A stretch of 64,000 nucleotides of DNA from NCBI GenBank assembly GCA_041653615.1, contig JBAZEZ010000003.1, forward strand, positions 1,213 to 65,212, given 5' to 3'. The notes beneath the pieces are model-generated. The model was given only the letters and a program-made list of their open reading frames with translations. It was not told the origin of the DNA and did not search any database. The translations under genes were made by a program, and so were the position numbers. Origin of the DNA: Candidatus Ratteibacteria bacterium. Lineage in GTDB: Bacteria; Ratteibacteria; UBA8468; MWAK01. Positions 47,839-64,000 of the stretch are shown here, piece by piece. Numbering within the stretch: the first letter of the stretch is position 1; the number at the start of each line of letters is the position of its first letter.

Positions 47839-49151
47839 TTCTTAAAATCTACGTCTGTTTTTCCGCGCTCATAATGATTGTTTATACAATCAGGCATTTT
47901 ATCTTTACCTTGAACAGGGTCGCCGGCGAACAGAGAATATACTATCAGGATATAATGGACAGTGAACTTCCGACGGTTTCCGTGCTGGTTCCCATGCATA
48001 ATGAAGAAAAAGTGGCCCGGGATATTTTGAACTCTTTGCTCGGTACCTCCTATCCCGGCGCGAAACTGGAGATATTGCCGATTATGCTGGCGGACAATCC
48101 GAACGAGACGCTGGAAACACTGGAAAATGTAGAAATCATACCGATTGACGACCATTCCACTGACGGAACAAAGAAGATATTGGCCGAGTATGCCGCCAAG
48201 TACCCGCAGGTAATGCCCGTATACCGGCAAGACCAGAAACGGGGCAAAGCTCGTGGATTAAACGATGCCATTGATATGGCCCGGGGCGATATTATCGTGG
48301 TTTTTGACGCCGACTACATCCCTGGAAAAGGCATCATCAAAGACCTCGCGGTTTGTTTTAAGGACCCGGAGGTGGGGGCGGTTATGGGCCGGGTTATTCC
48401 TTTGAATACCAAACATTCCCTGCTGACGCGGCTGCTTGACCTGGAAAGGTCCGGCGGCTACCAGGTTGACCAGCAGGCCAGGCATAACCTGAAACTTATG
48501 CCGCAGTATGGCGGAACGGTCGGTGCCTTCCGGCGCGATATCGTTATCGATATCGGCGGGTTCAACCCGAACAGTCTTACCGAAGACACGGAACTTACTT
48601 TCCGGCTTTTTACCCTGGGGTGGAAGGTCCTTTACGCCAACCGGGCCGAATGCTATGAAGAAGTTCCGGAAGACTGGAACGTGAGGGCGCGTCAGATAAA
48701 GAGATGGTCTCGCGGCCATAACCGGGTAATGTTCGGACAGATGTGGCCGTTGCTTAAATCAAAATATCTGACCGGCCGGGAAAAAATAGACGGAGCCTTG
48801 CTGCTGGGCGTGTACGCAACTTCTTTTATATTTGTCCTGGCCGCGTTTTGTTCCCTGGCGTTATTTTTTCTTGGAGAAATGGAGATATTCCCGGGTATTC
48901 TATTTTTAATTATGGTCATAACTTATAATGCCTTCGGTAACTTCGCTCCATTTTACCAGATTGCCACCGCCTCTTTTCTGGACGGAGGCGCTTACCGGAT
49001 ACGCTTGCTGCCGTTGTTTATATTTACCTTTTTCTTTAATTTATGGTATGTGTTTCTCGGATTCCTGTACGCGGTAGTCGACGTGGTAACCAGAAGAAAG
49101 ACCCGGTGGGATAAAACCAGTCGGTACCGAAAAACGGAGGTTACATCATGA
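47820..49151 (+). CDS. family-2 glycosyltransferase, processive synthase type (PgaC/IcaA/NodC/cellulose-synthase-like)
   Basis: 443 aa; N-terminal TM, DxD-type (VVFDADY), TEDTELTFR, Q(I)KRW processivity motif, C-terminal TM helices. Confidence 0.85.
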   Translation: MALVILILKIYVCFSALIMIVYTIRHFIFTLNRVAGEQRIYYQDIMDSELPTVSVLVPMHNEEKVARDILNSLLGTSYPGAKLEILPIMLADNPNETLETLENVEIIPIDDHSTDGTKKILAEYAAKYPQVMPVYRQDQKRGKARGLNDAIDMARGDIIVVFDADYIPGKGIIKDLAVCFKDPEVGAVMGRVIPLNTKHSLLTRLLDLERSGGYQVDQQARHNLKLMPQYGGTVGAFRRDIVIDIGGFNPNSLTEDTELTFRLFTLGWKVLYANRAECYEEVPEDWNVRARQIKRWSRGHNRVMFGQMWPLLKSKYLTGREKIDGALLLGVYATSFIFVLAAFCSLALFFLGEMEIFPGILFLIMVITYNAFGNFAPFYQIATASFLDGGAYRIRLLPLFIFTFFFNLWYVFLGFLYAVVDVVTRRKTRWDKTSRYRKTEVTS

Positions 49152-50200
49152 CACCGTTATTTATCTTTTTTAATTCAATTCCATACCCGATTTTGCTGGC
49201 TTTTCTGATTTTCCTGCTCTTGATATTGCTTCCTTTTGTCCCGGCTATCCGGGAACTTGTCAGGCCGAAGGATTCTCTCGCTTTGTTCATCAAGATGGAT
49301 TACACGAAAAACCCGAGGTATTTTGACCGGGCATTCAAGGATATCCTGGAAAAATCCCTGGAAAAAGTCGGATACGAACCCGGGCTGAAGAAGGTGCAGC
49401 TTTCCAAGAACGAACTGGTTGATATTTCGGATTCCAAGGTGGTCCCGGATAACGAAATCGTCGGTAACATTCTGTACGTCCGGAAAAAATTCACTTCCGG
49501 CAAAAGAGTATATCTGAATAAAGAAATTTTCGCCGGGGAATCGGCCATAATCGGAGAAAAAAATGTGCTGCGTGCTGTTGCCAGCGACGGAAACATAACC
49601 ATTTCCGCGGGAACAAGGGTTATCCGGTGGGTCGGGACCGAAGGGAGCGTGTTTGTCGGGTCGGATTGCGTCTTGGGAAAGCTCTGCTCCTGTAGCGGTT
49701 TGTTGGAGATAGGCAAGGCCTGCGTGTTTAACGCCTTGTACGGTAAACCTATTAATACCTATAAAATGCCGGACAAAGAGGTGGTTTCGGTTGCGCCGAA
49801 AATGAAAAATGTCGATGACGCGGCGTGGTACGTATCCGAAAATCATTTTTCGATACCTCCCGGCGCCGTGATTAATAACGATATTATCTCCAAGAGAAAC
49901 CTGACTTTAAAAAAGGACTGCACCGTTGCGGGCAGTTTGAAGTCCTACGGAAATATCGTGCTGGATGAAGGCGTAACCGTAAAAGGCAACCTGTTTGCGG
50001 AAGGAGATATTATCATCGGCGGGAAGAGTACCGTTACCGGAAATATATTTTCACAGAGCTATATCCGGATCGGCGGAAACGTGGGGGTCGGGGAAACGGG
50101 AACTATTAAGTCGGTCATCGGCAAAAAGGGGATTGAACTGACCGGCAATACGGTTATCTTCGGTTATGTTCTTACCGAAGGAACCGGTCGGGTGCTATGA
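49148..50200 (+). CDS. membrane-anchored bactofilin-like (CcmA/DUF583 beta-helix) protein
   Basis: 350 aa; N-terminal TM; repeated G(N/D)I..G...V.G motifs in the C-terminal half; ATGA overlap with GT2. Confidence 0.6.
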   Translation: MTPLFIFFNSIPYPILLAFLIFLLLILLPFVPAIRELVRPKDSLALFIKMDYTKNPRYFDRAFKDILEKSLEKVGYEPGLKKVQLSKNELVDISDSKVVPDNEIVGNILYVRKKFTSGKRVYLNKEIFAGESAIIGEKNVLRAVASDGNITISAGTRVIRWVGTEGSVFVGSDCVLGKLCSCSGLLEIGKACVFNALYGKPINTYKMPDKEVVSVAPKMKNVDDAAWYVSENHFSIPPGAVINNDIISKRNLTLKKDCTVAGSLKSYGNIVLDEGVTVKGNLFAEGDIIIGGKSTVTGNIFSQSYIRIGGNVGVGETGTIKSVIGKKGIELTGNTVIFGYVLTEGTGRVL

Positions 50201-52860: not shown

Positions 52861-52861
52861 G

Positions 52862-52995
52862 GGTCCCGTAATTGTTGTGTAGTTGCCGAGCTTGCTCGGC
52901 GCAGTTAATGTAGGGGCGCGATTCATCGCGCCCGTGGGTCGGATGAATCCGACCCCTACGTTTAAAGAGCCAACCAAGGTTGGCCCCTACAATTT
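52862..52995. repeat. multi-hairpin intergenic repeat, copy A (GTTGCCGAGCTTGCTCGGCGC module plus GTAGGGG...CCCCTAC nested palindromes)
   Basis: shares a 23-bp module with 55633-55655 and the TGTAGGGG/CCCCTACA architecture with 55668-55725 and 60198-60290. Confidence 0.7.
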
Positions 52996-53012
52996 AAGGA
53001 CGAAAGGAATCT

Positions 53013-54170
53013 ATGCGCGCTATCAGAAGACTGAAAATCGGTGTGGTAACTGTTTTTTTTCTGTTCGTGGCGACTTTTCTTTTTGCCGAAGCGCCGTCCC
53101 AGGATTTCCATTTTCAAAACGGTGTAAAATTGTACTTGGAAGGGGATAGTGAAGCGGCCCTGGTTGCGCTGCGAAAATCGCTGGAAATAAATCCGGACAG
53201 CCGGGAAACCCGGGAACTAATCAATCTAATTTCCGGAAAGAAAAAGGCCGAACCGATTATAGTTGCGGAGCAAAACCCCGCGTCTCCGATACAGTTTTTA
53301 GAGCCTGAAGAGGCGGTGCAACAGGCAGTCCTGGATACAAAAGAACCCATAGAACCCGTGCTTACCAACAGGTCTTCAGAACCCGCGGTGCTTCCCGGCG
53401 GGTTTTTAGATTACGTGTCTTCCAAAAAAATAACGAAAATCAACATGGTACCATACCGGAATAGTCTTGAAGCAGATTTTTTAGTGGAATATCTTGACCC
53501 GAACGACATTTATGGTTCCTGGGAAAGTTTCGAACTCACCTTTTACCGGAATCAGTCTGACTCTTTAACGTATTTTCTGCAGGGCGGGGTATTCTGGCGG
53601 GATGAGGGAGACGGAATGAGTTTCGGCGCCGGGATTTCTAAAACCTGGAACAAGTATCTGTATACTTCTTCGTCCGTACATGCCGGAACCAACGTTGATT
53701 ACCTTCCCGAAATAAATCTTTCCCACGGTTTTTATTTTAAATTGGGGCAAAACAGAAACAACGTCGTCCCAATAGGTTTTACCTACATTGGTTTCCGCAA
53801 CGGTCACGAAGTGTATGTCGTTTCTTCCGGAATAACCGTTTACCGAACCGGATGGATTTTCGAGTACTTGTTATCCCGAAACCAGAATGAACCCGGCAGC
53901 GTCATTTCTTATTCCCACCTTGCCTCTGTTGCTCACGGACAGGATGGTTTGCAATGGTTGACCCTCACCCTCTCCGCCGGCCAGGATGCCTATCTGGCGA
54001 CGGATTTAACAACACCGGAGGAAGTGAATCAGGATTCTTACGGCGCCGCAATCCGTTTAAAACGGTGGTTGGGAAAGAGTTACGGAGTTATCGGAGAAAT
54101 CAGTTACTTTACTTTGGGTGATTCATACGATAAGTACGGTCTTACCGTCGGCATTTTTACTGAATTTTAA
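53013..54170 (+). CDS. putative outer-membrane beta-barrel protein with an N-terminal TPR-like module (PgaA-like export porin candidate)
   Basis: 385 aa; signal peptide; alternating amphipathic beta-strand pattern; C-terminal ...GIFTEF aromatic terminus; N-terminal HFQNGVKLYLEGD...INP...LISGKK module shared with the PilQ N-terminus. Confidence 0.5.
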   Translation: MRAIRRLKIGVVTVFFLFVATFLFAEAPSQDFHFQNGVKLYLEGDSEAALVALRKSLEINPDSRETRELINLISGKKKAEPIIVAEQNPASPIQFLEPEEAVQQAVLDTKEPIEPVLTNRSSEPAVLPGGFLDYVSSKKITKINMVPYRNSLEADFLVEYLDPNDIYGSWESFELTFYRNQSDSLTYFLQGGVFWRDEGDGMSFGAGISKTWNKYLYTSSSVHAGTNVDYLPEINLSHGFYFKLGQNRNNVVPIGFTYIGFRNGHEVYVVSSGITVYRTGWIFEYLLSRNQNEPGSVISYSHLASVAHGQDGLQWLTLTLSAGQDAYLATDLTTPEEVNQDSYGAAIRLKRWLGKSYGVIGEISYFTLGDSYDKYGLTVGIFTEF

Positions 54171-54183
54171 AGGGCTGGAATTT

Positions 54184-55632
54184 TTGAAAGTTTACGCGCT
54201 GAGCCTGGGATGCCCGAAGAATCTGGTTGACACGGAAAGGTTTCTGGCCGACCTGGTCGGTAAAAGATGGGAAGTGGTCGCGGAGCCGGATGAAGCGGAC
54301 GTTCTTTTCCTGAATACCTGCGCGTTTCTCTCCGAGGCGGTAGTTGAGTCAAAGAAGTTTTTGCGGGATTTGATTTTCGTCAAGAAACGTTTTCCGGAAA
54401 AAAAGATTTATCTGGCCGGCTGTATGGTCAGTCGCATTGGCAAATCGCTGCTATCTGAATTTCCGGAAATTGACCGGTTGATTACCCCTCAGGAGATCGT
54501 TCTTCTTCCTAACCGCTTTCTCTGCACCCCAAGTCACTATGCCTACCTTAAGATTTCCGATGGCTGCGACAATCATTGCCGCTATTGCCTGATTCCCGGA
54601 TTGCGCGGCCCCTTGAAGAGTTACCCGATGGAGCGGTTGATTGCCGAAGCGCGCACGCTGATAGCCGGAGGCGTGCGGGAAATAAATATTTGCGCCCAGG
54701 ATACCACCAGCTATGGGATTGACCTTTACGGAAAACCGGTCTTGGATAAATTGCTGCGGGAAGTTTGCAAAATTGAGGATTTGCGCTGGGTTCGGCTTTT
54801 GTATACCTATCCTACCGGTTATAACGAAGAACTAATAGAAACGCTCGCGGAACTTGCTTCCCCCTCACCCCGCCCTCTCCCCCGTGGGGAGAGGGGGAAT
54901 TCCTCTTTATTATTTCCTCTCCCCGAAAGGAAGAAGATGAATTCTCTTTCGTCCTTTCCTCTCTCCCCGGAGGAGAGGGGGAATACCCTTTTATTATCTC
55001 CTCTCCCCACGGGGGAGAGGATGAAGGTGAGGGGGAGTTTGCCGGGAGGGGTGAGGGGGAAATTGTGTCCCTACCTTGACATCCCGTTGCAGCACGCTTC
55101 CGACCAAATACTTTCGGCGATGAATCGCCACGGCAGCCAAAAAGAATACCGTAAATTAATTGCCAAATTGCGCCGTGCCATTCCGGATTTGATCCTGCGC
55201 ACAACTTTTATGGTCGGCTATCCGGGTGAAACGGAAAATGATTTTCAAATACTGCTGGATTTTGTTGAGGAGATGGAGTTTGAAAAATTAGGTCTTTTTG
55301 CCTATTCGGCGGAAACCGGTACGCCGGCGGCTGATTTACCGCAGGTTCCCCAGCCGCTGAAGGAAGAACGACTGGAAAGGTTAGGAAAAGTCCAGGCGAA
55401 GATTTCGCGGCGTAAATTGAAGAATTTTATTGGATGCGAGGTTGAAGCGGTGGTTGAGGACGTTAATCCGGATGATAAGAAAAAATCAATCGGCCGGACC
55501 CAGTTTGACGCGCCGGAAGTGGACGGTTCAATTATTCTGGACCGCCTGTTCCCGGTCGGGACCTTTGTTCGGGTAAAGGTTATTGGTGTGGATTCGTATG
55601 ACTTGCACGGAGAGGTAATACAAGAATTGTAG
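54184..55632 (+). CDS. rimO: ribosomal protein S12 methylthiotransferase RimO (MiaB-family radical SAM plus TRAM), carrying an in-frame 67-aa insertion
   Basis: MTTase N-domain (SLGCPKN), CDNHCRYC radical-SAM cluster, YLDIPLQHAS, C-terminal TRAM; probable TTG start at 54184 (the track ORF begins at 54118 and overlaps the upstream gene). Confidence 0.85.
   Translation: MKVYALSLGCPKNLVDTERFLADLVGKRWEVVAEPDEADVLFLNTCAFLSEAVVESKKFLRDLIFVKKRFPEKKIYLAGCMVSRIGKSLLSEFPEIDRLITPQEIVLLPNRFLCTPSHYAYLKISDGCDNHCRYCLIPGLRGPLKSYPMERLIAEARTLIAGGVREINICAQDTTSYGIDLYGKPVLDKLLREVCKIEDLRWVRLLYTYPTGYNEELIETLAELASPSPRPLPRGERGNSSLLFPLPERKKMNSLSSFPLSPEERGNTLLLSPLPTGERMKVRGSLPGGVRGKLCPYLDIPLQHASDQILSAMNRHGSQKEYRKLIAKLRRAIPDLILRTTFMVGYPGETENDFQILLDFVEEMEFEKLGLFAYSAETGTPAADLPQVPQPLKEERLERLGKVQAKISRRKLKNFIGCEVEAVVEDVNPDDKKKSIGRTQFDAPEVDGSIILDRLFPVGTFVRVKVIGVDSYDLHGEVIQEL
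54860..55060. mobile_element. 201-bp palindromic MITE-like element (TIRs CCCCCTCACCCC / GGGGTGAGGGGG; three internal CTCTCCCC-N4-GGGGAGAG hairpins) inserted in frame within rimO
   Basis: TIRs at 54860-54872 and 55048-55060; length 201 = 3 x 67 keeps the frame; encoded peptide is low-complexity PLPRGERG...PLPTGER. Confidence 0.7.
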
Positions 55633-55735
55633 TTGCCGAGCTTGCTCGGCGCGGTTGTTTTGTTGTAGGGGAGGGGCTCTGTCCCCTCCCGTGGTGGGCG
55701 GGGATGTAACCCCGCCCCTACATTAACACTTTCCT
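55633..55735. repeat. multi-hairpin intergenic repeat, copy B
   Basis: GTTGCCGAGCTTGCTCGGCGC + TGTAGGGGAGGGGCTCTGTCCCCTCCCG + GGCGGGGATGTAACCCCGCCCCTACATTAA between convergent rimO and pilQ; likely also a bidirectional terminator. Confidence 0.7.
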
Positions 55736-57351
55736 TACTTAACCTGCGCGGTCTTTTCGCGAAGTAAAGCCGCGGCGTCCGCGGATTCGTTAACAACGTG
55801 CGGCGTAATAAAAATTAAGAGTTCCGTTTTCTTGGGTTCTTTAACCGTTCGTTTGAAAAGATAGCCGAAAATCGGAATATCTCCGAAAAAGGGAACCTTG
55901 TAAGCAGTGTCCTTCGTTTGGTTGGTTAGCAGCCCTCCGATTACTACCGTCTGCCCTGATCTAACCGTAACGTTGGTATCGGATTCCCGGTTGTTGATTC
56001 TGGGAAGAACCAGGGTTCCGTCCCCGGTACCGGAAGCCACAGAATCGCCCAGGGATGTTACTTCCGGGTGGAGAATCATTTCCACCGCGCCTGCCTGGTT
56101 AACGTGAGGTATAACCCGAAGACTGATTCCGATGGGTTCGTAATGGTCGAGTGAACCGGTGATCAAGGTTTTTCCCGTGGTATCGGTAGTCGTGGTAGTG
56201 GTCATGATGGGGTATCTTTCGCCGACCATAATTGCGGCCGGATAGTTGTCCAGGGCCATGATTCGCGGGTTGGAAAGGATGTTGGCTTTTCCGGATTTTT
56301 CCAGGGCTTGGATCGTTACGTTTAAAGGGATGTGATTGTTATCGTAAGTAAGAGAAAGTCCGCCCCCGGCGGACATTGCCGGGACAGGAAAAGCCGGGCT
56401 GGTCAGGGTTGTGAGGCCGGAGGTAAGGCCGTTGGTTGTGGTGGGACCCCAGTTAATCCCGATGTCCCTTATATAGTCCGAGCTGATTTCTACAATCATG
56501 GCTTCGATCAGAATTTGGGATGGTTTTACGTCCAATTGGTTGATGAGAGTTTCAATTTTGGCTAAAACCTTCGGGGAATCGACAACTACCAGTACTTTAG
56601 GTTTTTCTTCGTTAGCGGTCGCTTCGCGCGTTTTTTTCCCGATGGTGGTTCCGGTGGTGGAAACACCGCTCATTGACCAGCCGCCGACCGATAAGTCGGT
56701 CATTACGTCAACCGTTCCGCCGGGTGAAAGTTGTTTTTGGATAATCTCCTTAATTTTTTCCGCGCTTACGTAATTAAGGGTAAACACCCTCGTAATCAGC
56801 GTGTCGGTGGTTAAGGGATTGTTCCGCGAGGAAAGGTTGGTTAAGGTGGAAACCAGCATCAGGCTGCCGGATTTTTCGTAGCCGAATCCGTTTACCGCCA
56901 GGATTGCGCGGAGGGCTTCTTCCACCGGTATGTTGGAAAAGGAAATAGTTACGGTTCCGGCCACTTCCTTGCCCGCGACAATATTAAATCCGTATTCTTG
57001 GGCAAAGAGCCGTAGGACATCGTTAAGGTCGGCGTTTTTTAACTCCAGGCTCAGTAATTTTGCCCCTTCCGTTTTTATTGCCGGAGCCATGACTTCCGTT
57101 GGCGCCTGGCTGATTTCCTGTTTTCCGGAAATCAGGGCAAGCAATGCCTGTGCCTGTTCGTGGCTGGGGTTAATTTGGAGCGATTGGTTCAATTCCGATA
57201 CGGCCGCTTTGTTTTCCCCATTCAAATAATACTTTAAACCTTTCTGGAAGTGTTGTTCTGCCGGAGGCGCTCCTTCACCCAGGAGCAATACCGGAACAAA
57301 TAAGAGTAAGACCAGCAGAATCCAAAATCTTTTGGTTATCGCGGGACACAT
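55735..57351 (-). CDS. pilQ: type IV pilus secretin PilQ (secretin family outer-membrane channel)
   Basis: 538 aa; signal peptide; N0/N1-like repeats; C-terminal secretin domain (VVIGGLLTNQTKDTAYKVPFFGDIPIFGYLFKRT...LLIFITPHVV); last gene of the pilMNOP cluster. Confidence 0.8.
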   Translation of the reverse strand: MCPAITKRFWILLVLLLFVPVLLLGEGAPPAEQHFQKGLKYYLNGENKAAVSELNQSLQINPSHEQAQALLALISGKQEISQAPTEVMAPAIKTEGAKLLSLELKNADLNDVLRLFAQEYGFNIVAGKEVAGTVTISFSNIPVEEALRAILAVNGFGYEKSGSLMLVSTLTNLSSRNNPLTTDTLITRVFTLNYVSAEKIKEIIQKQLSPGGTVDVMTDLSVGGWSMSGVSTTGTTIGKKTREATANEEKPKVLVVVDSPKVLAKIETLINQLDVKPSQILIEAMIVEISSDYIRDIGINWGPTTTNGLTSGLTTLTSPAFPVPAMSAGGGLSLTYDNNHIPLNVTIQALEKSGKANILSNPRIMALDNYPAAIMVGERYPIMTTTTTTDTTGKTLITGSLDHYEPIGISLRVIPHVNQAGAVEMILHPEVTSLGDSVASGTGDGTLVLPRINNRESDTNVTVRSGQTVVIGGLLTNQTKDTAYKVPFFGDIPIFGYLFKRTVKEPKKTELLIFITPHVVNESADAAALLREKTAQVK

Positions 57352-57364
57352 ATTTTCCCCTCCT

Positions 57365-58618
57365 TTATTGTAATATTCTGATTACCTGTTCCAACCGTTC
57401 TTTTAAGCGAACGGCATCTTTATCGGTCGGATCCAGTTTCAGGATTCCATCAGTTGTTTCCATTGCTTTTTCGTACTGGCCGGCGTTAATGTAGGCGCTT
57501 GCCTGATTTTTGAGTTCACTGATTCGTTTTTCTTGGTCAAAGACTGGTTTAGGCGCGGGTGGCGGAATCACCACTTTCGGTTTCGGAGTTTTCACCGCTG
57601 CCGGTTCTTCCGAAACTTCTTTGGCTTTTATTTTTACCTCAGAATTTTCCTGCGCGGCAATGGTAATCGGTTCGGCTTTGGTGTAGATAAAGTTAATGGT
57701 GGCGGCGCCATTTTGAAAACTGAAGGCCGGAATAAATTCCGGCTTAATCAATCCGGTTCCGGATGTTTTTATGAATACCCCTTTTCCTTCTTTATCGTAA
57801 TAAACACAGACATTATCATAGGCGTCTTTAGCCGTAATTTCCGTCTGGAAAGCCCGCCCGGCAGTAATTTCGGAAGGATAGGCGATGCTAAAATGATGAA
57901 TAAATCCGGGTTTTATTCCCATGGTTCCCGTTCCGGAGATTTTACCTGCCTCATTTTTGAAAACAAGGGTTGCTTTGCCGGTTTTGGTGCATGTCAATTT
58001 GATTGCCGCTATTCCCTCGGTAAAATTAGTCTGGTTAAGATAATTCGGGCTGACCGTACTTTCTCCGTTGTTTGTAATTCTGATGCTGCCCTGTTCGGTA
58101 CCAAACGAGGTTACGCAATTTCCGTTGGCGTCCCTGGCGATTATTTCCCCGGTAAAAGGTTCGCCGGCTCTTGACTGGGCCGGAAGCATGATTTCAAAAT
58201 AAGCGGCTTTGCCGGGAAACGCCTGAAGAATTGCCGATCCAAGGGCCGCGGAGCCTTTTTCCTTTACGATAATTTTAAAGATTTCAGCCCGGGAGTAGGA
58301 GCAGGTAACGACCGTTTTTCCTTCTTTAAAATCATCCGATTTAATAATTCCCGGTTTGAATTCTCCGGTGCCGATAGCCTTGATTTCAATTTCTTTTTCC
58401 TTTTGGTCATATCCGGCTATCATGTTGTCGTAGAAATCTCTGACCTCCAGTTCAATGGTAAAAGGTTCGCCGGCTTTGATTCCGGAGGGCGCGTTAATGA
58501 TAAAATGGTCGGTTTCGCCCGGTGATACTGTAATGGCAGCCGAAACCCGGTCGGCGGTTCCCGTAAAGATAAATAACGACAGAATTATTAGGAATGATTT
58601 TTTCATTATTTTTTTCAT
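57365..58618 (-). CDS. secreted protein with three about-110-aa Ig-like repeats, a Pro-rich linker and a short TPR-like tail; embedded between pilP and pilQ
   Basis: 417 aa; signal peptide; repeated ...AGEPFT...DAYDN... blocks; PKPKVVIPPPAPKP linker. Confidence 0.5.
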   Translation of the reverse strand: MKKIMKKSFLIILSLFIFTGTADRVSAAITVSPGETDHFIINAPSGIKAGEPFTIELEVRDFYDNMIAGYDQKEKEIEIKAIGTGEFKPGIIKSDDFKEGKTVVTCSYSRAEIFKIIVKEKGSAALGSAILQAFPGKAAYFEIMLPAQSRAGEPFTGEIIARDANGNCVTSFGTEQGSIRITNNGESTVSPNYLNQTNFTEGIAAIKLTCTKTGKATLVFKNEAGKISGTGTMGIKPGFIHHFSIAYPSEITAGRAFQTEITAKDAYDNVCVYYDKEGKGVFIKTSGTGLIKPEFIPAFSFQNGAATINFIYTKAEPITIAAQENSEVKIKAKEVSEEPAAVKTPKPKVVIPPPAPKPVFDQEKRISELKNQASAYINAGQYEKAMETTDGILKLDPTDKDAVRLKERLEQVIRILQ

Positions 58619-58643
58619 TTTAAGTCTCCCTTGTCTGTCTTAA

Positions 58644-59102
58644 TTAGTTTCCAAACCGAAGAATTTCTTCATCCGTTCCTCTTTTCAGTATGACCCGATT
58701 TTTTTCAATAGCCACAATTTTTTTGTCGTTCACGATATCTCCGACCCGAAGGATTTTTTCATTGATAATCGCTGTTGCTTTTCCGCCGTTCCCCAAAAGT
58801 ATGCCGGTAAGGGAGGAGGGCGCTAATTCACCTTTAAGTATTAATTGAAATGGGCCTGTTCCGGCAGAAGTGAATGCCGGACGCATCGGGTCTTTTTGGG
58901 TTGTGTGGTAATATATCGGCATCCCCGCCTGTTTGGATTTTTCCAGCAGGTCTGCTGTTTCTTTCCAAAAGTTTTCTTCGCCAATTACTTCGGTTTCATT
59001 CTTTACCGGGTTTGGTTTTTTCCCGGTCAGATGGAGGCTGAAGAATAGGAATCCCAGGGAAAAGAGCATTAGAACCGCGAGAACTATCGGTTTTTTATTC
59101 AT
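58644..59102 (-). CDS. pilP: type IV pilus assembly protein PilP-like
   Basis: 152 aa; signal/lipoprotein-like N-terminus; C-terminal beta domain ...AIINEKILRVGDIVNDKKIVAIEKNRVIL typical of PilP. Confidence 0.6.
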   Translation of the reverse strand: MNKKPIVLAVLMLFSLGFLFFSLHLTGKKPNPVKNETEVIGEENFWKETADLLEKSKQAGMPIYYHTTQKDPMRPAFTSAGTGPFQLILKGELAPSSLTGILLGNGGKATAIINEKILRVGDIVNDKKIVAIEKNRVILKRGTDEEILRFGN

Positions 59103-59605
59103 TTGGTATAGGTGACGACTTCAATTTCTCCCCGGTGCAGGTTTTCCGTATTCTCCAGGGTTAACCGGTCTATTCGGAAAAGGGCCTGGTCTGATTCCAG
59201 GAGATGGATAAAATTTACAATCTGCCGGTAATTTCCCGTGAAAACAATTTTAAAGGAGATTTCGCCGGTCGTTTTGGCGATATCGGTTCGAGGGGTAGGG
59301 GCAACCGATGAAACCCGGACGCTTGCTTTTTTAGCCAAACCCAACAGGCGGGTTAGAATGGATTTTTCCGGGATAAACAGCCGGTTTTTAAGAATAGCCC
59401 CGGTCTCTTTTAGGCTATTTCGGGAAGCGGCAATTTCTTCTTCCTGCTGCGTCACAGATGATTTTAAGGTGTCGGAATTTAATTTTACTTTAAGTTCTTT
59501 TATCTTGCGGTTCTGGGGAAAAATAAGAACCATAAAAAGAGAAACCATTAATGCCAGATAAGTTACGCCGGCTATCAGAAACCACCTTAAAGGAATTCTC
59601 TTCAT
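59099..59605 (-). CDS. pilO: type IV pilus assembly protein PilO-like
   Basis: 168 aa; single N-terminal TM, coiled coil, ferredoxin-like C-terminus; position between pilN and pilP. Confidence 0.6.
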   Translation of the reverse strand: MKRIPLRWFLIAGVTYLALMVSLFMVLIFPQNRKIKELKVKLNSDTLKSSVTQQEEEIAASRNSLKETGAILKNRLFIPEKSILTRLLGLAKKASVRVSSVAPTPRTDIAKTTGEISFKIVFTGNYRQIVNFIHLLESDQALFRIDRLTLENTENLHRGEIEVVTYTK

Positions 59606-60150
59606 TTTTTTGTTCCAACGATTCTGAAATTAAAGGTTCCCGCTTCTTCTCCTATCTGCTCGAATTTCAGGTCATTCAATCCCCGGGTAAAATTTTCATT
59701 TCCGTTTAACTTTTCCAAAAAGACCGACAGAGAAGTCATCGTTTGGTTTCCAGACAGTTCCTGCCCCTCCAGGGAGACAATGTCCCCTTCGAAATTTATC
59801 TTGTTAAAATAAAAATGGTTTGGTGTGGCGTCAGAGAGTACGACCAATTTTGGCGTCAGGAGCAGGCGTTGTTCTTGGAATAGCACGATTTTTTTCAATT
59901 CTTCCTGCCGGGATTTTTCCTCATCGGTGGGGGAGAATGTCTCGCGTTGTTCTTTGGTCAGGGTCAACCCCTGTTTTTCTACTCGCGCGGTATAATCGGT
60001 AATAATGGTCTTATTGGTTGCGCGAATGATACTTAAAATTGCCAAGGAAAAGAACAGTATGGGCAGAAAAATGCCGATAAAGAAAAAAAGACGTTCTTTT
60101 CTTTCAATCGGTTCGGTGTATCTTTCTTTGATTAAATTAATTTCAACCAT
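59602..60150 (-). CDS. pilN: type IV pilus assembly protein PilN
   Basis: 182 aa; MVEINLIKER start (PilN INLLP-type), single TM. Confidence 0.65.
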   Translation of the reverse strand: MVEINLIKERYTEPIERKERLFFFIGIFLPILFFSLAILSIIRATNKTIITDYTARVEKQGLTLTKEQRETFSPTDEEKSRQEELKKIVLFQEQRLLLTPKLVVLSDATPNHFYFNKINFEGDIVSLEGQELSGNQTMTSLSVFLEKLNGNENFTRGLNDLKFEQIGEEAGTFNFRIVGTKK

Positions 60151-60164
60151 AATTTCTTTTAATT

Positions 60165-60295
60165 GTAGTCGCCCGGCTTGCCGGGCTCCGTTTTTTTCTT
60201 GTAGGGGAGGGGCTTTGTCCCCTCCCGCAGTAGGACAGGCGTCCCGCCTGTCAAATCGCGGGCGGGGATGTAACCCCGCCCCTACATTAAAATTT
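60165..60295. repeat. multi-hairpin intergenic repeat, copy C, in the pilM-pilN spacer
   Basis: GCCCGGCTTGCCGGGC + TGTAGGGGAGGGGCTTTGTCCCCTCCCG + GGCGGGGATGTAACCCCGCCCCTACATTAA; about 90% identical to copy B over the latter modules. Confidence 0.7.
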
Positions 60296-61824
60296 TAAGA
60301 ATTTACACCGTTCCTCGGAGAAAGTCCGGCCAGAATGGCAAGGAAAGGAGCCAGGTTTTTTCCCCGTTCCGTTTGCAGTCCGTCGTCTTTTAAAACTGGA
60401 TATGGTTCCAGTTCCAGTAGTATTCTTTCGCCGATAAATTTCGGCAAGGAAGGAATCTGTCCGCCGCCGCCGGTTACCACCAATTTTTTAACCTTTATTT
60501 CCAAAACCTGCTGGCAATAGCTGATTGTTTTTTCCAATTCATCCAACAGGGTTTTTGTGGTTTTGTCAATGGCGTCCGGGAAGGCAATCAGGGAATGTTT
60601 TTTTTCTTCCAACATCTCCAGGACGGTTGGGGCGTCGAAGTTGTTGGCAGACACTATTTCCGCGATTATCCTTTCGTTGCCCCAGAGTATATCCCGGACA
60701 AAAAGAAGTTTGTTTTTTTCAACTACGGCCAGGTTGCTTCTCCGGTGTCCGATGTTAAGAAGCAGCGTTGCTTCGGAACCGTTTCCGGTGTTGGCCAGGT
60801 ATCCGTTTGCCAGCGCAATGCTGTCAATGGTTAATCCGGTCGGATTGAGCCCTGTTGATTTAAGTAAAGAAATTCTTTCGTCGCTTAAAATTTGCGGGGC
60901 GGCGACAAAAAGAATTCCCCTCTTTTCATTTTTTTGGTCGATAAGAGAGAAATCGGAATCCATCAGGGAAAGGTCTTCTCCGAGAATCTGCGATGCTTCA
61001 ATCTTAATCGCCCCGGTCAATTCTTTGCCGGTCAGGGCAGGGAGGGAGAGGTATTGCACGTTTATTTCCGAGTTGGAAATAGAAGAGAAAACCGGTTTTC
61101 TCTCCAGGTGGTGCTTGGATACCCAACCGGAAAGCAGGGTGGCTGTTTCGTTGTTTTCAACCGGCCGCCGGGCAAATTCAATCGCTTTCAGTTTTCCATC
61201 GCCATTGATAACCGCGAGTTTTACGTATCGGCTGCCGATATCTACGGCTACCGTAGTCTGTCCGCCGAATTTTTTCTGGGACGGGGTGGTCATTTTCAAG
61301 GATTTATTTTGCTTTATCTCCTCTTTTTTTACTATTGCCTGCTGCCGCAGTTCTTCCCGTTCCCGAAGCAGGGTTTCTTTTTTAGCCAGGGCTGCCTGAC
61401 GCGCCGCCTCTTTCTGTTTTTGTAATTCTTCTTTTGTTTTGATTGCAGCTGCTTTGCGTTCTTCGGTTTCTTTTAACCTGCCCGCCGCAATTTCTTCCTT
61501 GTTCCGCCTTTCTTCGGTGGATTGTTTTTGCTTAAATTCCAGTTCCCGCTGTTTTGCCGCTTCTTTTTCCCGGAATTGCGCTTCGGTTTTTACTATTGCC
61601 TGCTGCCGCAGTTCTTCCCGTTCTCGAAGCAGGGTTTCTTTTTTAGCCAGGGCTGCCTGACGCGCCGCCTCTTTCTGTTTCCGCAGTTCTTCCTTTGCTC
61701 TAACTCTAACATCCATTGCTTCCGCCGCGGCTTTATTTTTTTTGAGCCGGAGTATCTCCAGAAATTTTATTTTGTTTTCTTTTTGGTCAGAGTTCATCAT
61801 CTTTTCCAGCTCGGTTTGGTCCAA
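60295..61824 (-). CDS. pilM: type IV pilus assembly ATPase-fold protein PilM with an about-200-aa Lys/Glu-rich coiled-coil N-terminal extension
   Basis: 509 aa; C-terminal actin/FtsA-like fold (VAVDIGSRYVKLAVI...); N-terminus contains two copies of KEELRKQKEAARQAALAKKETLLREREELRQQAIVK, encoded by an about-100-bp DNA tandem repeat at 61324-61425 and 61587-61688. Confidence 0.7.
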   Translation of the reverse strand: MDQTELEKMMNSDQKENKIKFLEILRLKKNKAAAEAMDVRVRAKEELRKQKEAARQAALAKKETLLREREELRQQAIVKTEAQFREKEAAKQRELEFKQKQSTEERRNKEEIAAGRLKETEERKAAAIKTKEELQKQKEAARQAALAKKETLLREREELRQQAIVKKEEIKQNKSLKMTTPSQKKFGGQTTVAVDIGSRYVKLAVINGDGKLKAIEFARRPVENNETATLLSGWVSKHHLERKPVFSSISNSEINVQYLSLPALTGKELTGAIKIEASQILGEDLSLMDSDFSLIDQKNEKRGILFVAAPQILSDERISLLKSTGLNPTGLTIDSIALANGYLANTGNGSEATLLLNIGHRRSNLAVVEKNKLLFVRDILWGNERIIAEIVSANNFDAPTVLEMLEEKKHSLIAFPDAIDKTTKTLLDELEKTISYCQQVLEIKVKKLVVTGGGGQIPSLPKFIGERILLELEPYPVLKDDGLQTERGKNLAPFLAILAGLSPRNGVNS

Positions 61825-63005
61825 CTGAAAAAAGTAATTCCACCACCACCGCCCGAATCACCGGGAGGCGGTACTTCCCCCAAGGAAACGTCATCGTATA
61901 ACCTTACGTTTCCCGTGAGGTTCACCTGGTTGGCGATGACTCCGCCCCGCAATTCCGAACTGCCGCTAATGGTAACTGTGGAACCGGGCGCGTAAATGGC
62001 GGCGTTAATTCGGCAGTTGCCGGTTAGGCTCACCGCCGGGCTGCCGGTAACGTATATCGCGATGTTGGCCGGACTGTCGTTATAATTCAACTGGGCACTG
62101 TTGGAAAAGGTAACCGCTCCGCCGCCGCCCATATATATCGCAAGGTTTGCTCCCGAACCCAAAATAATGCCGTTGCTGTTGTTTGTTATGGATAACGCGT
62201 TCTCTATGTATAAACGGACGGTCCCGGATATGGTGAGTTCGGCGTCCGAAGCGATTGAAAGGGATTTGAGGTGATAATCACCCGCCGTTATGCCGGCGTC
62301 CCTGGGCCAGGAACTCATCGTGTAGTTACCGCCGCTTACCTTAAAGTTTCCGGTCAGTCCCGGGGTGGTTTGGGTAATACGGGGTAAGCTGGTCAGGCTG
62401 GTGGGGATGGTTACCGGGTCGGGTGTGCGCAGGGCTGCGTTTGTATCCTGGTCCCCGGTTATGGCGTTTGGACTCCACGAAGGGTAAGTTATGCTGCCGG
62501 TGGACGGAACGGCCGCGTCGCCGTGTATTATGCCGGTTGAGTTTATGTAAATACTTGAATTGCTGCCGGTGGAAGCATCGGCGGCAGCTCCGGTTCGGGA
62601 ATCATATCCGTAAATCTGGGAACTTCCGTAAATGGAAATCTGTGAGGCGCCGAACAGGCCCTGGCTGAAATAACCTCCACCGCTGCCTTTGGTAAGGTTC
62701 ACAACAATGGTTTCATCCTTAACTCCGTTTACCTTACCGGTTGAAGTATTCGTAATCGTATTTCCGTTTATTGTTTGAGTTAGTTCGAAAGAACCCGCTC
62801 CCAGGTTTACGGTCATGGGGTTGGGGTTAGGCATCCAGGAACTGCTTTGTTTTAATTGGTAACGCGCATAGTCAATACCGGCTTCCGCCAGGTAGAATGC
62901 CTGTTCCCGGTGTAACCGTTTGTTGGCCTCAATCCGGTCCATGGAACCGATTACCATAATTCCGGCTCCGACAATCATCGCGATAATCATATAAATAATG
63001 ACCAT
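61797..63005 (-). CDS. PilX-like pilus-associated protein with N-terminal TM and Thr/Ser/Gly/Asn-rich beta-helix-like body
   Basis: probable start at Met ...MVIIYMIIAMIVGAGIMVIGS (the track ORF extends to 63140 through the intergenic palindromic repeat); PilX_N-like hydrophobic segment then repetitive beta-rich region. Confidence 0.5.
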   Translation of the reverse strand: MVIIYMIIAMIVGAGIMVIGSMDRIEANKRLHREQAFYLAEAGIDYARYQLKQSSSWMPNPNPMTVNLGAGSFELTQTINGNTITNTSTGKVNGVKDETIVVNLTKGSGGGYFSQGLFGASQISIYGSSQIYGYDSRTGAAADASTGSNSSIYINSTGIIHGDAAVPSTGSITYPSWSPNAITGDQDTNAALRTPDPVTIPTSLTSLPRITQTTPGLTGNFKVSGGNYTMSSWPRDAGITAGDYHLKSLSIASDAELTISGTVRLYIENALSITNNSNGIILGSGANLAIYMGGGGAVTFSNSAQLNYNDSPANIAIYVTGSPAVSLTGNCRINAAIYAPGSTVTISGSSELRGGVIANQVNLTGNVRLYDDVSLGEVPPPGDSGGGGGITFFSWTKPSWKR

Positions 63006-63039
63006 CGGCAGCAGGTAACCGTTCTTACTCCTGATTTTT

Positions 63040-63130
63040 GTTATTCCCGCATGTGGTAAGCGGGAATCCAAATGCATTAGGTGTAAATTCCCGTCTAAAA
63101 TATAAGGGAGTGACGGAATTTTATTATTCG
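63040..63130. repeat. paired palindromes ATTCCCGCATGTGGTAAGCGGGAAT and AAATTCCCGTC...GACGGAATTT
   Basis: core shared with 27880-27960. Confidence 0.5.
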
Positions 63131-63136
63131 TATTCA

Positions 63137-63655
63137 TCACGGTTTATTTCTCAGGTAAACCAGGAAATTATTAGACAATCTTCTTTCAGTCGGTGTTCCT
63201 TCACTTTTTACGACGGTCAGGTCAACCCGGACGCTGCGTTTGTCAGGAAGACTGTTTTTGAAAGTAATGGATTGCAAGGTGTTTATAATCGGTGCCGGGT
63301 CCGGGGATTCGCCGAAGTTTTTGTAAATCAACCCATTGCCCGAAGCCTGCCGGTAGAATTCTTTAGACCAGTCATTTTTATAACCGGTCCGAATCCGATT
63401 TCCGCTGTTAGGACCGGGATAGGAAATGGTATCGTAGTCTGCTTCATCCAGTACCCCTTTTATCTGGTAACTTGCCGTATCAAGGTCTCTTTGTAAATCC
63501 GCTATCTCCTTGCCGGTTTTAAAATCTTTAAATGAGGCAACAATCAGGGTTTCGATGCCGAAGAGCGCTATCGCACTTAGGCTAATGGCGATGATTACTT
63601 CAACCAGCGTAAATCCGCCTGCGCTAAAGCTTCGGCGGATGAATCCCTTTTTCAT
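63137..63655 (-). CDS. type IV pilus minor pilin (PilW-like) with prepilin N-terminal methylation motif
   Basis: 172 aa; GFTLVEVIIAISL leader/hydrophobic helix. Confidence 0.65.
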   Translation of the reverse strand: MKKGFIRRSFSAGGFTLVEVIIAISLSAIALFGIETLIVASFKDFKTGKEIADLQRDLDTASYQIKGVLDEADYDTISYPGPNSGNRIRTGYKNDWSKEFYRQASGNGLIYKNFGESPDPAPIINTLQSITFKNSLPDKRSVRVDLTVVKSEGTPTERRLSNNFLVYLRNKP

Positions 63656-64000
63656 AATTTTTCCGAGATGTACGTTGTTAGGGAAACGGGTGGAGTTGCT
63701 TCACCCCAGTTCACGGAAACCGTATATGCTCGTATAAAATTTCCGGTCGGATCTTCGGTAATGGTGTTCGAGGTTGTTGTTCGCGTAAAAGTTTTTCCTT
63801 TATATTGCCAAGTAGGGTCGAATGTGATGGTGGGGGGGTAATCCATGCTCTTTAACTGCTCTATTTTATAAATGGCGGTCCAGTTCGCCAGACGCTGGCA
63901 GTCGGCATAAGAAAGATTATTGCGATTGAGGGAAAAAAAGGCTACTCCGCCAAGCAGGGATATGACCAGTATGATTGTGGCGATAATTACTTCAACTATC
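63652..64000 (-). CDS. minor pilin (PilV-like), 3' portion; N-terminus beyond window end
   Basis: reverse strand reads ...EVIIATIILVISLLGG... pilin-type hydrophobic helix at the window edge, continuing into the 63652-63846 ORF. Confidence 0.5.
   Translation of the reverse strand, partial: IVEVIIATIILVISLLGGVAFFSLNRNNLSYADCQRLANWTAIYKIEQLKSMDYPPTITFDPTWQYKGKTFTRTTTSNTITEDPTGNFIRAYTVSVNWGEATPPVSLTTYISEKL

Follow-up and report, generated by a model that had tools for sequence, protein, structure and literature searches.

Two components of a type IV pilus locus in an uncultured bacterium (NCBI label Candidatus Ratteibacteria; closest relatives labelled Omnitrophota) raise the question whether they are conserved parts of the machine or recent changes. 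One is a PilM with a long charged N-terminal extension, the other a 417-aa Ig-repeat protein encoded between pilP and pilQ. The window, the whole 64,000-nt stretch of DNA analyzed, was compared with same-species assemblies and with relatives. Both components probably represent recent, population-specific changes, and neither a conserved machine part.

The reading as a type IV pilus assembly locus was correct, and open reading frames together with Pfam and NCBIfam matches bear out the gene order on the minus strand: minor pilins, pilM-pilN-pilO-pilP, the 417-aa protein and pilQ. The first gene (63652-64000) encodes a minor pilin and is truncated by the window end, leaving only its 3′ part; its product has 126 aa in contig L005 of the same species and is 51% identical to a 124-aa pilin of L001 (tblastn). 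Its stop overlaps the ATG of the next gene (63137-63655), encoding a 172-aa minor pilin with a prepilin N-methylation motif (Pfam N_methyl, E 3e-4, 20.7 bits, slightly under the 21.2-bit cutoff; NCBIfam TIGR02532, score 18.9, over the cutoff of 16.3) and 55-62% identity to pilins of relatives. A DUF7305 protein of 446/447 aa (61797-63140; Pfam PF23981, E 7.9e-20) has a pilin-like hydrophobic N-terminus and occupies the PilX position. Its gene is syntenic in L003, L004, L013 and L017. An HMM search yielded no PilX_N match in this protein, so the term PilX-like describes its position only. PilM (60295-61800, frame open to TTG 61824) is identified by PF11104 (E 9e-13). PilN, PilO and PilP are assigned from sub-threshold HMM matches, size and synteny. 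PilN (59602-60150, 182 aa; Pfam PilN, E 7.4e-4) starts with MVEINLIKERY followed by a transmembrane segment and is 57-79% identical to the products of the syntenic genes in relatives. A PilO/GspM-like protein of 168 aa (59099-59605) matches T2SSM_b (E 1.2e-3), PilO (E 0.033) and NCBIfam GspM (E 4e-7). The PilP/GspC-like protein (58644-59102, 152 aa; T2SSC, E 7e-3; GspC, E 2e-4) has an N-terminal membrane anchor, no lipobox cysteine, and a C-terminal domain kept in relatives. The Ig-repeat gene (57365-58618) and the gene for a PilQ-type secretin of 538 aa (55735-57351; Secretin, E 2.7e-50) complete the series. The 144-nt gap between pilM and pilN holds a pair of GC-rich hairpins (60204-60282, minus strand) that recurs after pilQ in the convergent pilQ/rimO gap (55668-55718, minus strand); each hairpin has exactly two copies in the window. 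An exopolysaccharide-like gene set adjoins the operon.

PilM comprises 501 aa from ATG 61800, as in the gene call of L017, or 509 aa from TTG 61824. The PilM_2 domain is confined to aa 229-468 of the longer frame (60295-61824), and the actin-like core begins at about residue 182. With the PilMs of relatives, which have 325 aa, this core shares 60-78% identity; TIGR01175 scores 97.7 bits, under its cutoff of 133. The predicted K/E-rich, in-frame extension is present (61294-61800, minus strand), with a length of about 170 aa from the ATG (178 aa from the TTG) instead of about 200 aa. E, K, A, L, R and Q make up 78% of its residues, next to a single Gly and a single Pro. The coding frame contains no stop in 178 codons, while the remaining five frames hold 2-11 stops each; this openness may partly reflect an origin in coding DNA. 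AlphaFold2 (pLDDT 86 for the whole PilM model) predicts a single long helix for residues 4-159 (pLDDT 82-95).

The expected duplication of about 100 bp inside the extension is real, yet not tandem. Copy A (61587-61697) and copy B (61326-61436), both on the minus strand, share 111 nt at 95% identity, including a 94-nt core at 98.9% with one synonymous difference in the codon comparison. Their starts lie 261 nt (87 codons) apart with a 150-nt spacer in between; hence they are not tandem, and Tandem Repeats Finder detected no array here. Repeats are a classic source of misassembly, and two of the three contigs carrying the extension (L005 and L017) begin at the same point in pilC. An assembly artefact is nevertheless extremely improbable. 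Three near-identical assemblies of the species (contigs of 130 kb, 18.6 kb and 9.1 kb from three records, possibly of the same or related samples) contain the extension in identical form, its reading frame is intact throughout, and the contig name of L017 (k141_...) implies a k-mer of 141, longer than the 94-nt core.

No relative examined has the extension. It is absent from the PilM orthologues of L001, L003, L004 and L013 (48-78% identity), and in a search of 1.84 billion proteins none of the 150 best PilM representatives was extended at its N-terminus. The coiled coil proposed to link PilM to cytoskeletal partners is unsupported by this distribution. The high-confidence predicted helix speaks for such a coiled coil, and a dN/dS of 0.36 over 70 codons against the homologous contig L011 points to some constraint at the protein level. 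Heptad periodicity, however, was no higher than in shuffled sequence (crude test).

In place of the extension, relatives have a DUF7305-pilM spacer that measures about 70-80 nt, or 22 nt in L013, and contains promoter-like motifs (TTGACA/TAnACT) 8-9 nt before the pilM ATG. Among 5.8 billion proteins, the only homologue of the extension was P0167, encoded on L011, a YaiO-family fragment from another metagenome in which the matching K/E-rich stretch precedes the barrel domain. The homologous segment of the extension (61372-61583, minus strand) is 79% identical over 212 nt without gaps and 74% identical over 54 aa. L011 is a 756-nt contig neither end of which matches anything, and it could be a chimera joined at a shared 41-nt stretch. 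The window itself encodes a YaiO-family outer-membrane barrel (53013-54170, plus strand; TIGR04390, E 8e-34). Its gene carries a 38-nt stub (53308-53345) resembling the repeat core (84% over 38 nt; E 0.11, weak alone).

The extension is read here as a young, species-specific insertion. About 450-500 nt would have displaced the promoter-bearing spacer, in frame with pilM and with the start coupled to the stop of the upstream gene. Part of the insert is related to the region coding for the K/E-rich pre-barrel stretch of a YaiO-family outer-membrane protein, and an internal duplication with an 87-codon period would have lengthened it later. Since the insert is in frame and the start is ATGA-coupled, PilM is most likely made with the N-terminal helix: about 160 residues would form one strongly charged helix, which at 0.15 nm per residue would span some 23 nm when fully extended, and roughly 20 residues of flexible linker would connect it to a normal actin-like core. 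On the cytoplasmic PilM ring the extension would be a tolerated spacer or a steric appendage, not a conserved interaction domain.

Alternatively, the extension is not, or not only, translated within PilM; synthesis would start at Met178, and the upstream frame would be a 5′ leader, open on account of its recent copying from coding DNA. In the alignment, Met178 lies within about four residues of Met1 of the relatives, and the 3′ junction (TTGAAAATGAC) is also conserved in L003. Since the insert has homology to coding sequence elsewhere, the openness of its frame could be inherited, and pilM of the relatives looks nearly leaderless and therefore may need no ribosome-binding site. Against this stand the loss of the ancestral promoter motifs, with no promoter-like site found inside the extension on the coding strand, and the lack of a suitably spaced Shine-Dalgarno site before Met178. 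Both junctions preserve the reading frame, and the period of the duplication is divisible by three. In ATGA the start codon and the DUF7305 stop overlap, a coupling style also seen in pilO and pilP, and dN/dS is below 1. A start at Met178 is thus considered unlikely.

The second component was correctly described as a protein with three Ig-like repeats and a TPR-like tail between pilP and pilQ. It is a periplasmic accessory protein: behind a signal peptide come three invasin-like Ig domains at about aa 30-325, then a disordered, Pro-rich linker (328-359), and the three helices of a TPR-like tail occupy aa 362-416. Internal self-similarity is strong (E 1.6e-19), and the AlphaFold2 model (pLDDT 83) shows three beta-sandwiches and three helices joined by a disordered linker. 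The best Foldseek matches were InvD (5ldy) and invasin (1cwv); Pfam matches to Big_1 and TPR remained below cutoff.

This gene is not conserved in synteny. At the same position, L001, L003 and L004 encode a small LysM protein whose tail is homologous, and L013 has no gene between pilP and pilQ. The tails of the Ig and LysM proteins align (QYEKAMETTDGIL against QYRQALETTEQIL) with modest 30% identity (E 0.002), as generic TPR-like sequences scoring under Pfam cutoffs. Membership of the Ig protein in a lineage-conserved alignment subcomplex, coupled with a functional PilM coiled coil, is consequently very unlikely. The gene does lie inside the operon with its own Shine-Dalgarno-like site and a frame intact in most assemblies. 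It is syntenic in no relative, however, and its homologues occur in non-pilus contexts; together with the missing extension in relatives, these comparative data have largely refuted that reading already.

Homologues outside pilus loci raise another alternative, a passenger gene without pilus role, e.g. an accessory of exopolysaccharide export or an adhesin, whose tail likeness merely reflects generic TPR-like helices. The nearest homologue of the Ig protein, P0010 (51% identity), is encoded in a Wza/Wzc polysaccharide-export operon, where its gene precedes that of a Wza-type exporter and overlaps the start of the latter by 4 nt; further homologues occur in unrelated contexts. Moreover, an exopolysaccharide-like gene set is found beside the operon, L013 functions without a gene at this position, and the Ig gene carries a nonsense codon in L005, which hints that it may be dispensable or is a sequencing error. 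Several observations oppose a passenger and make it improbable. The Ig gene sits exactly where the LysM-tail gene sits, both tails share a specific motif and three-helix layout, the adjacent PilQ module changed along with the gene, and the Wza-like partner of P0010 itself begins with a PilQ-type module.

The secretin consists of a TPR-like module, an N0/STN domain, Secretin_N and Secretin, and has no AMIN domain. TIGR02515 reaches 258 bits, under its cutoff of 284, and the best solved relatives are PilQ structures (9x0w, 6ve2). The N-terminal module (aa 28-79; 57115-57270, minus strand), itself generic TPR-like sequence scoring under Pfam cutoffs, is homologous to the N-terminal modules of Wza-like proteins and of the YaiO-family barrel protein encoded in the window (46% identity to the latter, E 9e-12). 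It is only 56% identical to the modules of L001, L003 and L004, which share 88-92% identity among themselves, and the PilQ core retains 76-82% identity to relatives. Nucleotide homology to relatives (blastn) breaks between about 58880 and about 57030 and resumes at about 57030. The first 95 or so codons of pilQ thus appear replaced together with the accessory gene, judged from four relatives. L013 keeps the PilQ module though it has no gene between pilP and pilQ.

The PilQ module and the accessory tail are inferred to form a putative docking pair, the most interesting reading of the locus. In this clade, the pilP-pilQ position holds a small periplasmic protein whose head is exchangeable and whose three-helix TPR-like tail, behind a linker, is conserved. 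The head is a LysM peptidoglycan-binding domain in three relatives and three invasin-type Ig domains here, the gene having apparently been exchanged jointly with the pilQ codons for the signal peptide and single TPR-like module. The tail would dock on the PilQ module, and the head would then connect the secretin, which lacks AMIN, either to the cell wall (through LysM) or to a different periplasmic partner (through the Ig rod). Of the roles in the original prediction, a secretin-associated factor remains plausible, though on other grounds: a tail shared with the LysM proteins and a gene apparently replaced along with the secretin module.

As predicted, the window holds no PilB, PilT, PilC or major pilin (tblastn). 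PilC and a 145-aa pilin are encoded directly past the window end in the same-species contigs L005 and L017, and the L001 contig carries genes for PilB, a PilT-like ATPase, PilC and a pilin upstream of the equivalent operon. The region corresponds to the assembly half of a gene cluster for a type IVa pilus and is, apart from the two add-ons, an ordinary operon.

The genes between 55735 and 64000 are tightly packed on the minus strand. The series opens with a truncated minor pilin (63652-64000; ORF plus Pfam/NCBIfam matches), a 172-aa pilin carrying an N-methylation motif (63137-63655), a DUF7305 protein of 446/447 aa (61797-63140) and a PilM_2 protein encoded by a 509-codon ORF (60295-61824), all assigned by Pfam/NCBIfam. 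PilM matches PF11104 above cutoff (E 9e-13) and reaches 97.7 bits with TIGR01175, below the cutoff of 133. Its core is predicted by AlphaFold2 as an actin/FtsA-like fold (pLDDT ~90). The following three products score below family cutoffs and have been assigned by size, membrane anchors and synteny. A PilN-like protein (59602-60150; Pfam PilN E 7e-4) and a PilO/GspM-like protein (59099-59605; Pfam PilO E 0.033) fit in length, N-terminal hydrophobic segment and gene position. The 152-aa PilP/GspC-like protein (58644-59102) has weak T2SSC/GspC matches and resembles PilP by position and C-terminal domain; the lipobox cysteine, the criterion for a PilP lipoprotein, is absent from its sequence. An accessory protein of 417 aa (57365-58618), an ORF with Big_1 and TPR matches below the Pfam cutoffs, precedes the secretin of 538 aa (55735-57351). 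The latter contains N0, N1 and secretin domains, with Secretin (E 2.7e-50), Secretin_N and STN above the Pfam cutoffs. The most related solved structures are PilQ proteins, which have 571-901 aa among those listed. No Pfam match to an AMIN domain was found in the secretin, which begins with a TPR-like module instead. The NCBIfam models for PilQ, PilM, GspD, GspM and GspC all score below cutoff. The gene order originally predicted, minor pilins followed by pilM-N-O-P, the 417-aa gene and pilQ, agrees with the ORFs and family matches, with the N, O and P assignments below cutoffs.

A tblastn search with the proteins of a relative detected no PilB, PilT, PilC or major pilin in the window, as had been predicted. 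PilC and a 145-aa pilin are located just past the window end in two contigs from the same organism, L005 (99.976% identity over 8167 nt) and L017 (identical over 13.7 kb except one indel). In the relative's locus L001, PilB, a PilT-like ATPase, PilC and a pilin are encoded directly upstream of the same operon; the two ATPases were seen only in this relative. Given these neighbours, the window edge cuts through a type IVa pilus cluster. The source MAG is labelled Candidatus Ratteibacteria by NCBI, its closest relatives Omnitrophota. The pilus system is a divergent, PVC-type one, and the core machine is most likely a standard PilMNOPQ assembly system.

Several features of the surrounding DNA were recorded. 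On the plus strand, 47035-54170 adjoins the pilus operon and resembles an exopolysaccharide locus in its genes, which encode a glycosyltransferase of family 2, a 350-aa protein weakly matched by bactofilin, an 887-aa protein matching no Pfam family, and a YaiO-family barrel. A RimO-like gene (54118-55632, plus strand) contains an in-frame insert of ~200 nt at 54858-55061, built from perfect GC-rich hairpins (e.g. CCTCTCCCCCGTGGGGAGAGG) recurring every 42 nt, and nested in an outer inverted repeat. It splits the Radical_SAM match in two and is translated as PLPRGERG.../SPLPTGERMKVRG. The L001 orthologue has a short form of the insert and the one in L013, a more distant relative, has none; a hairpin-repeat element is thus apparently growing within the gene of a conserved enzyme. 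A GC-rich hairpin pair, GGGGCGGGGTTACATCCCCGCCC and GGGAGGGGACAAAGCCCCTCCCC, occurs in exactly two copies in the 64 kb, at 60204-60282 within the 144-nt pilM-pilN gap and at 55668-55718 after pilQ (minus strand). Similar elements are found in intergenic regions of the relatives' pilus operons, and the pair may act as an intra-operon attenuator or RNA-stability element. Rfam at gathering thresholds returned only a tRNA for the hairpin regions. The PilP-like protein of L013 (4328-4903) harbors its own K/E/S-rich insert of ~45 aa, which indicates that charged low-complexity insertions may recur in the pilus proteins of this clade.

The PilM_2 domain spans only residues 229-468 of the ORF (Pfam). 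The first ~178 codons contain no stop in the coding frame, compared with 2-11 in the other five frames. The extension consists to 78% of E, K, A, L, R and Q, has one Gly and one Pro, includes ~20% hydrophobic residues and matches no Pfam family. The TTG at 61824 is unlikely to be the start codon. Eight codons 3' of it, the sequence ATGATG and the TGA that ends the DUF7305 gene overlap as ATGA, the same coupling as at pilO, pilP and the DUF7305 gene itself. One public gene call starts at this overlapping ATG, giving a PilM of 501 aa. Two direct-repeat copies (61326-61436 and 61587-61697) share 95% identity over 111 nt, with a core of 94 nt at 98.9% identity whose sole difference is synonymous. 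The copies start 261 nt (87 codons) apart and are separated by 150 nt, and Tandem Repeats Finder reported no array in the extension. The duplication itself therefore stands, and its description as tandem is wrong; the copies are dispersed.

The original prediction read the extension as a coiled coil. AlphaFold2, run on a 24-sequence alignment, predicts that residues 4-159 form one unbroken helix (pLDDT 82-95), followed by disorder at 161-182 and then by the confident actin-like core. A crude register scan gave a mean heptad periodicity of 0.255, below that of shuffled sequences (0.310), 289 of 300 of which equalled or exceeded the observed value, so that the coiled coil is left unsupported. 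Pairs of E with K/R at i to i+3/i+4 number 23 against 18.4 +/- 3.3 in shuffles (z ~1.4), a marginal enrichment. A charged single helix may be the better, if unproven, description of the modelled segment.

A search of 5.8 billion proteins yielded an identical protein and seven relatives at 60-83% identity, the latter of 321-326 aa and aligned to the core only. A scan of genome contigs with a profile from the PilM alignment gave five loci, among which L013 was the only new close relative. PilM identity to the window is 78% in L001, 72% in L003, 60% in L004 and 48% in L013. In the DNA of all four, pilM starts at the position of window Met178-182, preceded by a spacer of ~70-80 nt in L001, L003 and L004 and of 22 nt in L013. 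An exhaustive HMMER search of 1.84 billion representatives produced 3110 PilM matches. The best 150 of these all match the query within residues 165-507, with alignments starting no later than target residue 98; no N-terminally extended PilM is among them, and two long proteins have their extra length at the C-terminus. The extension is found in no other PilM retrieved, and the orthologues in L001, L003, L004 and L013 lack it, a result that the original prediction had named as speaking against it. The same holds for the best 150 of the 3110 matches. When JGI metagenome contigs were scanned for strain variants with an exact 23-nt pattern, no match was returned, and literature searches on N-terminally extended PilM or Omnitrophota pili gave nothing specific. 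An origin as assembly artefact is very unlikely, because the extension recurs without change in the 130-kb, 18.6-kb and 9.1-kb contigs of three assemblies, and the k-mer of 141 suggested by the name of the 18.6-kb contig (k141_...) exceeds the identical repeat core in length.

The DNA upstream of the relatives' pilM suggests what preceded the extension. The spacers of L001 (9925-10000), L003 (2605-2670) and L004 (3615-3700) carry TTGACA/GTGACA and TG-n-TA(T/A)ACT motifs that end 8-9 nt before the pilM ATG. A promoter scan flags L001 only, owing to the 19-nt spacing in L003 and L004. Judged by these motifs, transcription in these relatives probably starts anew just before pilM, with almost no leader. 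The motifs are gone in the window, where neither a promoter-like site on the coding strand of the extension nor an internal promoter or Shine-Dalgarno site for Met178 was found. Over its first ~45 nt, the extension ORF can be aligned with intergenic DNA of the relatives. L001 has an ATGA-coupled mini-ORF of 13 codons there, ending at a TGA inside the -35 hexamer.

With the extension alone as query, one significant homologue was retrieved, the 166-aa protein P0167 from the 756-nt metagenome contig L011. Positions 86-297 of this contig align ungapped with window 61583-61372 (79% nucleotide identity; 74% at the protein level over 54 residues), and positions 257-615 match window 53308-53678 with 77% identity, within the YaiO-family outer-membrane barrel gene that sits 1.5 kb beyond pilQ. 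The overlap stretch matches both the extension and the YaiO-family gene, and both ends of the contig match nothing; L011 could be chimeric, with the junction in that overlap. The window YaiO-like gene retains a 38-nt stub 84% identical to the repeat core (E 0.11, weak by itself). A YaiO-alignment profile search of metagenome contigs gave no further relative of the K/E-rich L011 type. Comparison of L011 with the extension of the window over 70 codons gave a dN/dS of 0.36, which points to some constraint at the protein level. We infer an origin in three steps. The stop of the mini-ORF and the promoter upstream of pilM would have been lost, K/E-rich linker-coding DNA would have been captured, creating the extension, and a duplication with an 87-codon period would have lengthened it. 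The resulting PilM would carry a charged helix projecting from the cytoplasmic ring, ~23 nm long if 0.15 nm is counted per residue. Being young and unique, the extension is most likely a tolerated or mildly modulatory appendage.

The 417-aa protein was originally described as three Ig-like repeats with a TPR-like tail, and self-comparison, AlphaFold2 and Foldseek agree with this structure. Self-comparison finds three repeats of ~100 aa (E 1.6e-19). The AlphaFold2 model (pLDDT 83) starts with a signal-peptide helix, followed by beta-sandwich domains at approximately residues 30-125, 126-225 and 228-325, a Pro-rich disordered linker (328-359) and three helices (362-416). Foldseek against the PDB ranks Yersinia InvD (E 4e-12) and invasin first and Ig arrays of S-layer proteins and macroglobulins next. 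Pfam Big_1 reaches 21.4 bits, with a cutoff of 34.9; TPR is likewise below cutoff, and no LysM was detected with Pfam or NCBIfam. The protein is probably periplasmic. Its signal peptide has no lipobox, and only the three C-terminal helices are present; it is not a pilotin by these features. The TPR-type matches of the tail and of the N-terminal module of PilQ, the YaiO-family barrel and the Wza-like protein (TPR_2 E 0.007-0.015, Fis1_TPR_C E 3e-4, TIGR02521 E 9e-5) are all below cutoffs, and the helical hairpin with capping helix in the AlphaFold2 model fits a TPR.

The role as lineage-specific pilus factor originally envisaged for this protein depends on its synteny, which is not conserved. 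The gene between pilP and pilQ in L001, L003 and L004 encodes a protein of 154-175 aa with signal peptide, LysM (E down to 1.8e-14), linker and helical tail. In L013, pilQ directly follows pilP. The tails are homologous, QYEKAMETTDGIL in the window and QYRQALETTEQIL in the relatives' LysM proteins, with a common three-helix layout, 30% identity and E 0.002. The closest full-length homologue, P0010 from another Omnitrophica MAG, is 51% identical including the tail. Its gene overlaps the start of a Wza-like Poly_export/SLBB gene by 4 nt in a Wzz/tyrosine-kinase/glycosyltransferase operon. More distant homologues have no tail and occur in unrelated contexts. Among these distant Ig-repeat proteins, P0013 and P0014 (L009 10001-11758) contain four repeats and a different C-terminal domain of ~130 aa, resembling by eye an AMIN-like beta domain, with no Pfam match.

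In L005, a change from TAC to TAA at position 57797 of the window gives the Ig-repeat gene a nonsense allele, Y274*; in L017 and in Logan contigs the gene is intact. Over 8.2 kb, window and L005 differ only at 57797 and 57785 (L005 7176 and 7188), 12 nt apart in this gene. The second difference is synonymous, and Tyr274 is invariant in the family alignment. Y274* is a genuine loss-of-function allele or else stems from a local error.

The TPR-like module of the secretin comprises ~50 aa (residues 28-79) right behind the signal peptide and matches the PilW TPR model TIGR02521 weakly (NCBIfam, E 9e-5). The YaiO-family barrel of the window (53013-54170, plus strand) begins with the same module (46% identity, E 9e-12), as does the Wza-like protein encoded downstream of P0010 (L006 4133-5515; 48-51% identity). 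All relatives' PilQs carry it. The PilQ core (residues 101-538) of the window is 76-82% identical to those of L001, L003 and L004, which are mutually 79-83% identical. For the module, the window shares 56% with these three, and they share 88-92% with each other. Identity to the module of the distant L013 is 58%, so those of L001, L003 and L004 are no closer. Blastn homology to the relatives ends in pilP at ~58880 and restarts at ~57030, near pilQ codon 107. Given the divergent module and this Blastn gap, the accessory gene was apparently exchanged as one tract with the 5' end of pilQ. The Wza-type locus L006 was rejected as direct donor, because the window module is about equally distant (46-58%) from all others.

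This exchange tract, taken together with the pairing at the P0010/Wza locus, suggests that tail and module form a cognate pair. Three observations run counter: L013 has the module and no accessory gene, the resemblances are those of TPRs in general, and the Ig-repeat gene of L005 has the Y274* allele. In this Ratteibacteria/Omnitrophota lineage, three unrelated outer-membrane channels, PilQ secretin, Wza-type exporter and YaiO-type barrel, have the same ~50-aa N-terminal module. A gene for a small tail-bearing periplasmic protein, with LysM or three Ig domains as head, lies immediately upstream of the secretin and the Wza-type exporter; none was found before the YaiO-type barrel. Jointly read, module and tail might be a split TPR, a plug-in adaptor connecting envelope machines to the cell wall or other periplasmic structures and exchanged as a cassette, as seems to be the case at this pilQ, and the PilM extension would combine a former intergenic mini-ORF with captured linker-coding DNA; this combined account is conceivable, though rather doubtful. 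In the relatives, the obvious candidate for anchoring the AMIN-less secretin to peptidoglycan is the LysM-tail protein, with TsaP, FimV and GspB as analogues. In the window organism, the LysM head has most likely been swapped for an Ig rod, which could serve as a spacer or bind another envelope component.

Overall, the original prediction is upheld in part, in its observations as in its interpretation, yet both findings that it had set against itself were made. The module-plus-tail arrangement common to three outer-membrane channel types is the lead worth following. If true, the pairing would show how a lineage with an AMIN-less secretin anchors envelope-spanning machines, and would represent a modular adaptor common to pilus, polysaccharide-export and barrel proteins. 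The PilM extension offers a clean natural case of a very recent N-terminal domain gain, in which a promoter would have been lost, a stop codon in a -35 box removed, coding DNA captured and an internal duplication added afterwards. The case can serve to study the origin of new protein segments. Since a single population carries it, it says little on general pilus biology, and direct tests are hard because the organism is uncultured.

With the type IVa PilMNOPQ systems of Pseudomonas, Myxococcus and Thermus, the locus shares gene order and families (actin-like PilM, bitopic PilN and PilO, a PilP-like protein, a secretin) and, in the relatives, adjacent PilB, PilT, PilC and pilin. In the Thermus PilM-PilN complex, PilN binds PilM through a conserved INLLP motif, which the N-terminus of the window PilN, MVEINLI..., resembles. 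The window differs in its AMIN-less secretin headed by a single TPR-like module, in a PilP-like protein without lipobox, in the additional gene between pilP and pilQ, and in the ~160-residue N-terminal helix of PilM, absent from other PilMs retrieved.

TsaP and FimV are LysM-containing proteins tying the PilQ secretin to peptidoglycan; the comparable proteins of type II secretion are GspB/ExeAB. The LysM-tail proteins that the relatives encode just before pilQ appear functionally analogous, with a periplasmic peptidoglycan-binding head on a secretin-proximal part. They belong to none of the TsaP, FimV and GspB families. Their sequence kinship to TsaP and FimV is limited to LysM. They are far smaller (154-175 aa). 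Compared with TsaP, which is defined by LysM plus a FlgT-like domain, they consist of LysM and tail only; compared with FimV, they have no transmembrane and cytoplasmic parts. The 417-aa protein of the window has no LysM whatever and thus falls outside TsaP as well. The pilotins PilF, PilW and Tgl are TPR lipoproteins of ~six TPRs needed for PilQ assembly. The weak match of the secretin module to the PilW TPR model and the TPR-like accessory tail recall them, whereas the window proteins have no lipobox, ~1.5 TPRs each, and TPR-like units split between secretin and accessory protein.

Like the Big_1 arrays of invasin and intimin, the 417-aa protein has three tandem beta-sandwiches, with InvD and invasin as best matches. 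Unlike them, it has neither a beta-barrel anchor nor a C-terminal lectin-like adhesive domain, and it ends in the TPR-like tail. The PilM extension resembles ER/K single alpha-helices and K/E-rich helical linkers such as TolA domain II in being rich in E, K, R, A and Q with almost no Gly or Pro. In this it also fits that it is predicted as one uninterrupted helix with no heptad pattern. It differs from both types in its marginal charge-pair enrichment, its ~20% hydrophobic residues and the lack of any family-level homology found. A further parallel is the Akkermansia cluster Amuc_1098-Amuc_1102, a PVC cluster with non-canonical extra genes between a PilM-like gene and the secretin (PMC5332112). 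Weak NCBIfam matches relate the window PilM to the Amuc_1101 family, and secretin and tail to the Amuc_1098 family, with scores far below cutoffs. The extra length of the Amuc_1101 family is C-terminal, as seen from the match to profile positions 6-315 of 608, and that of the window PilM is N-terminal.
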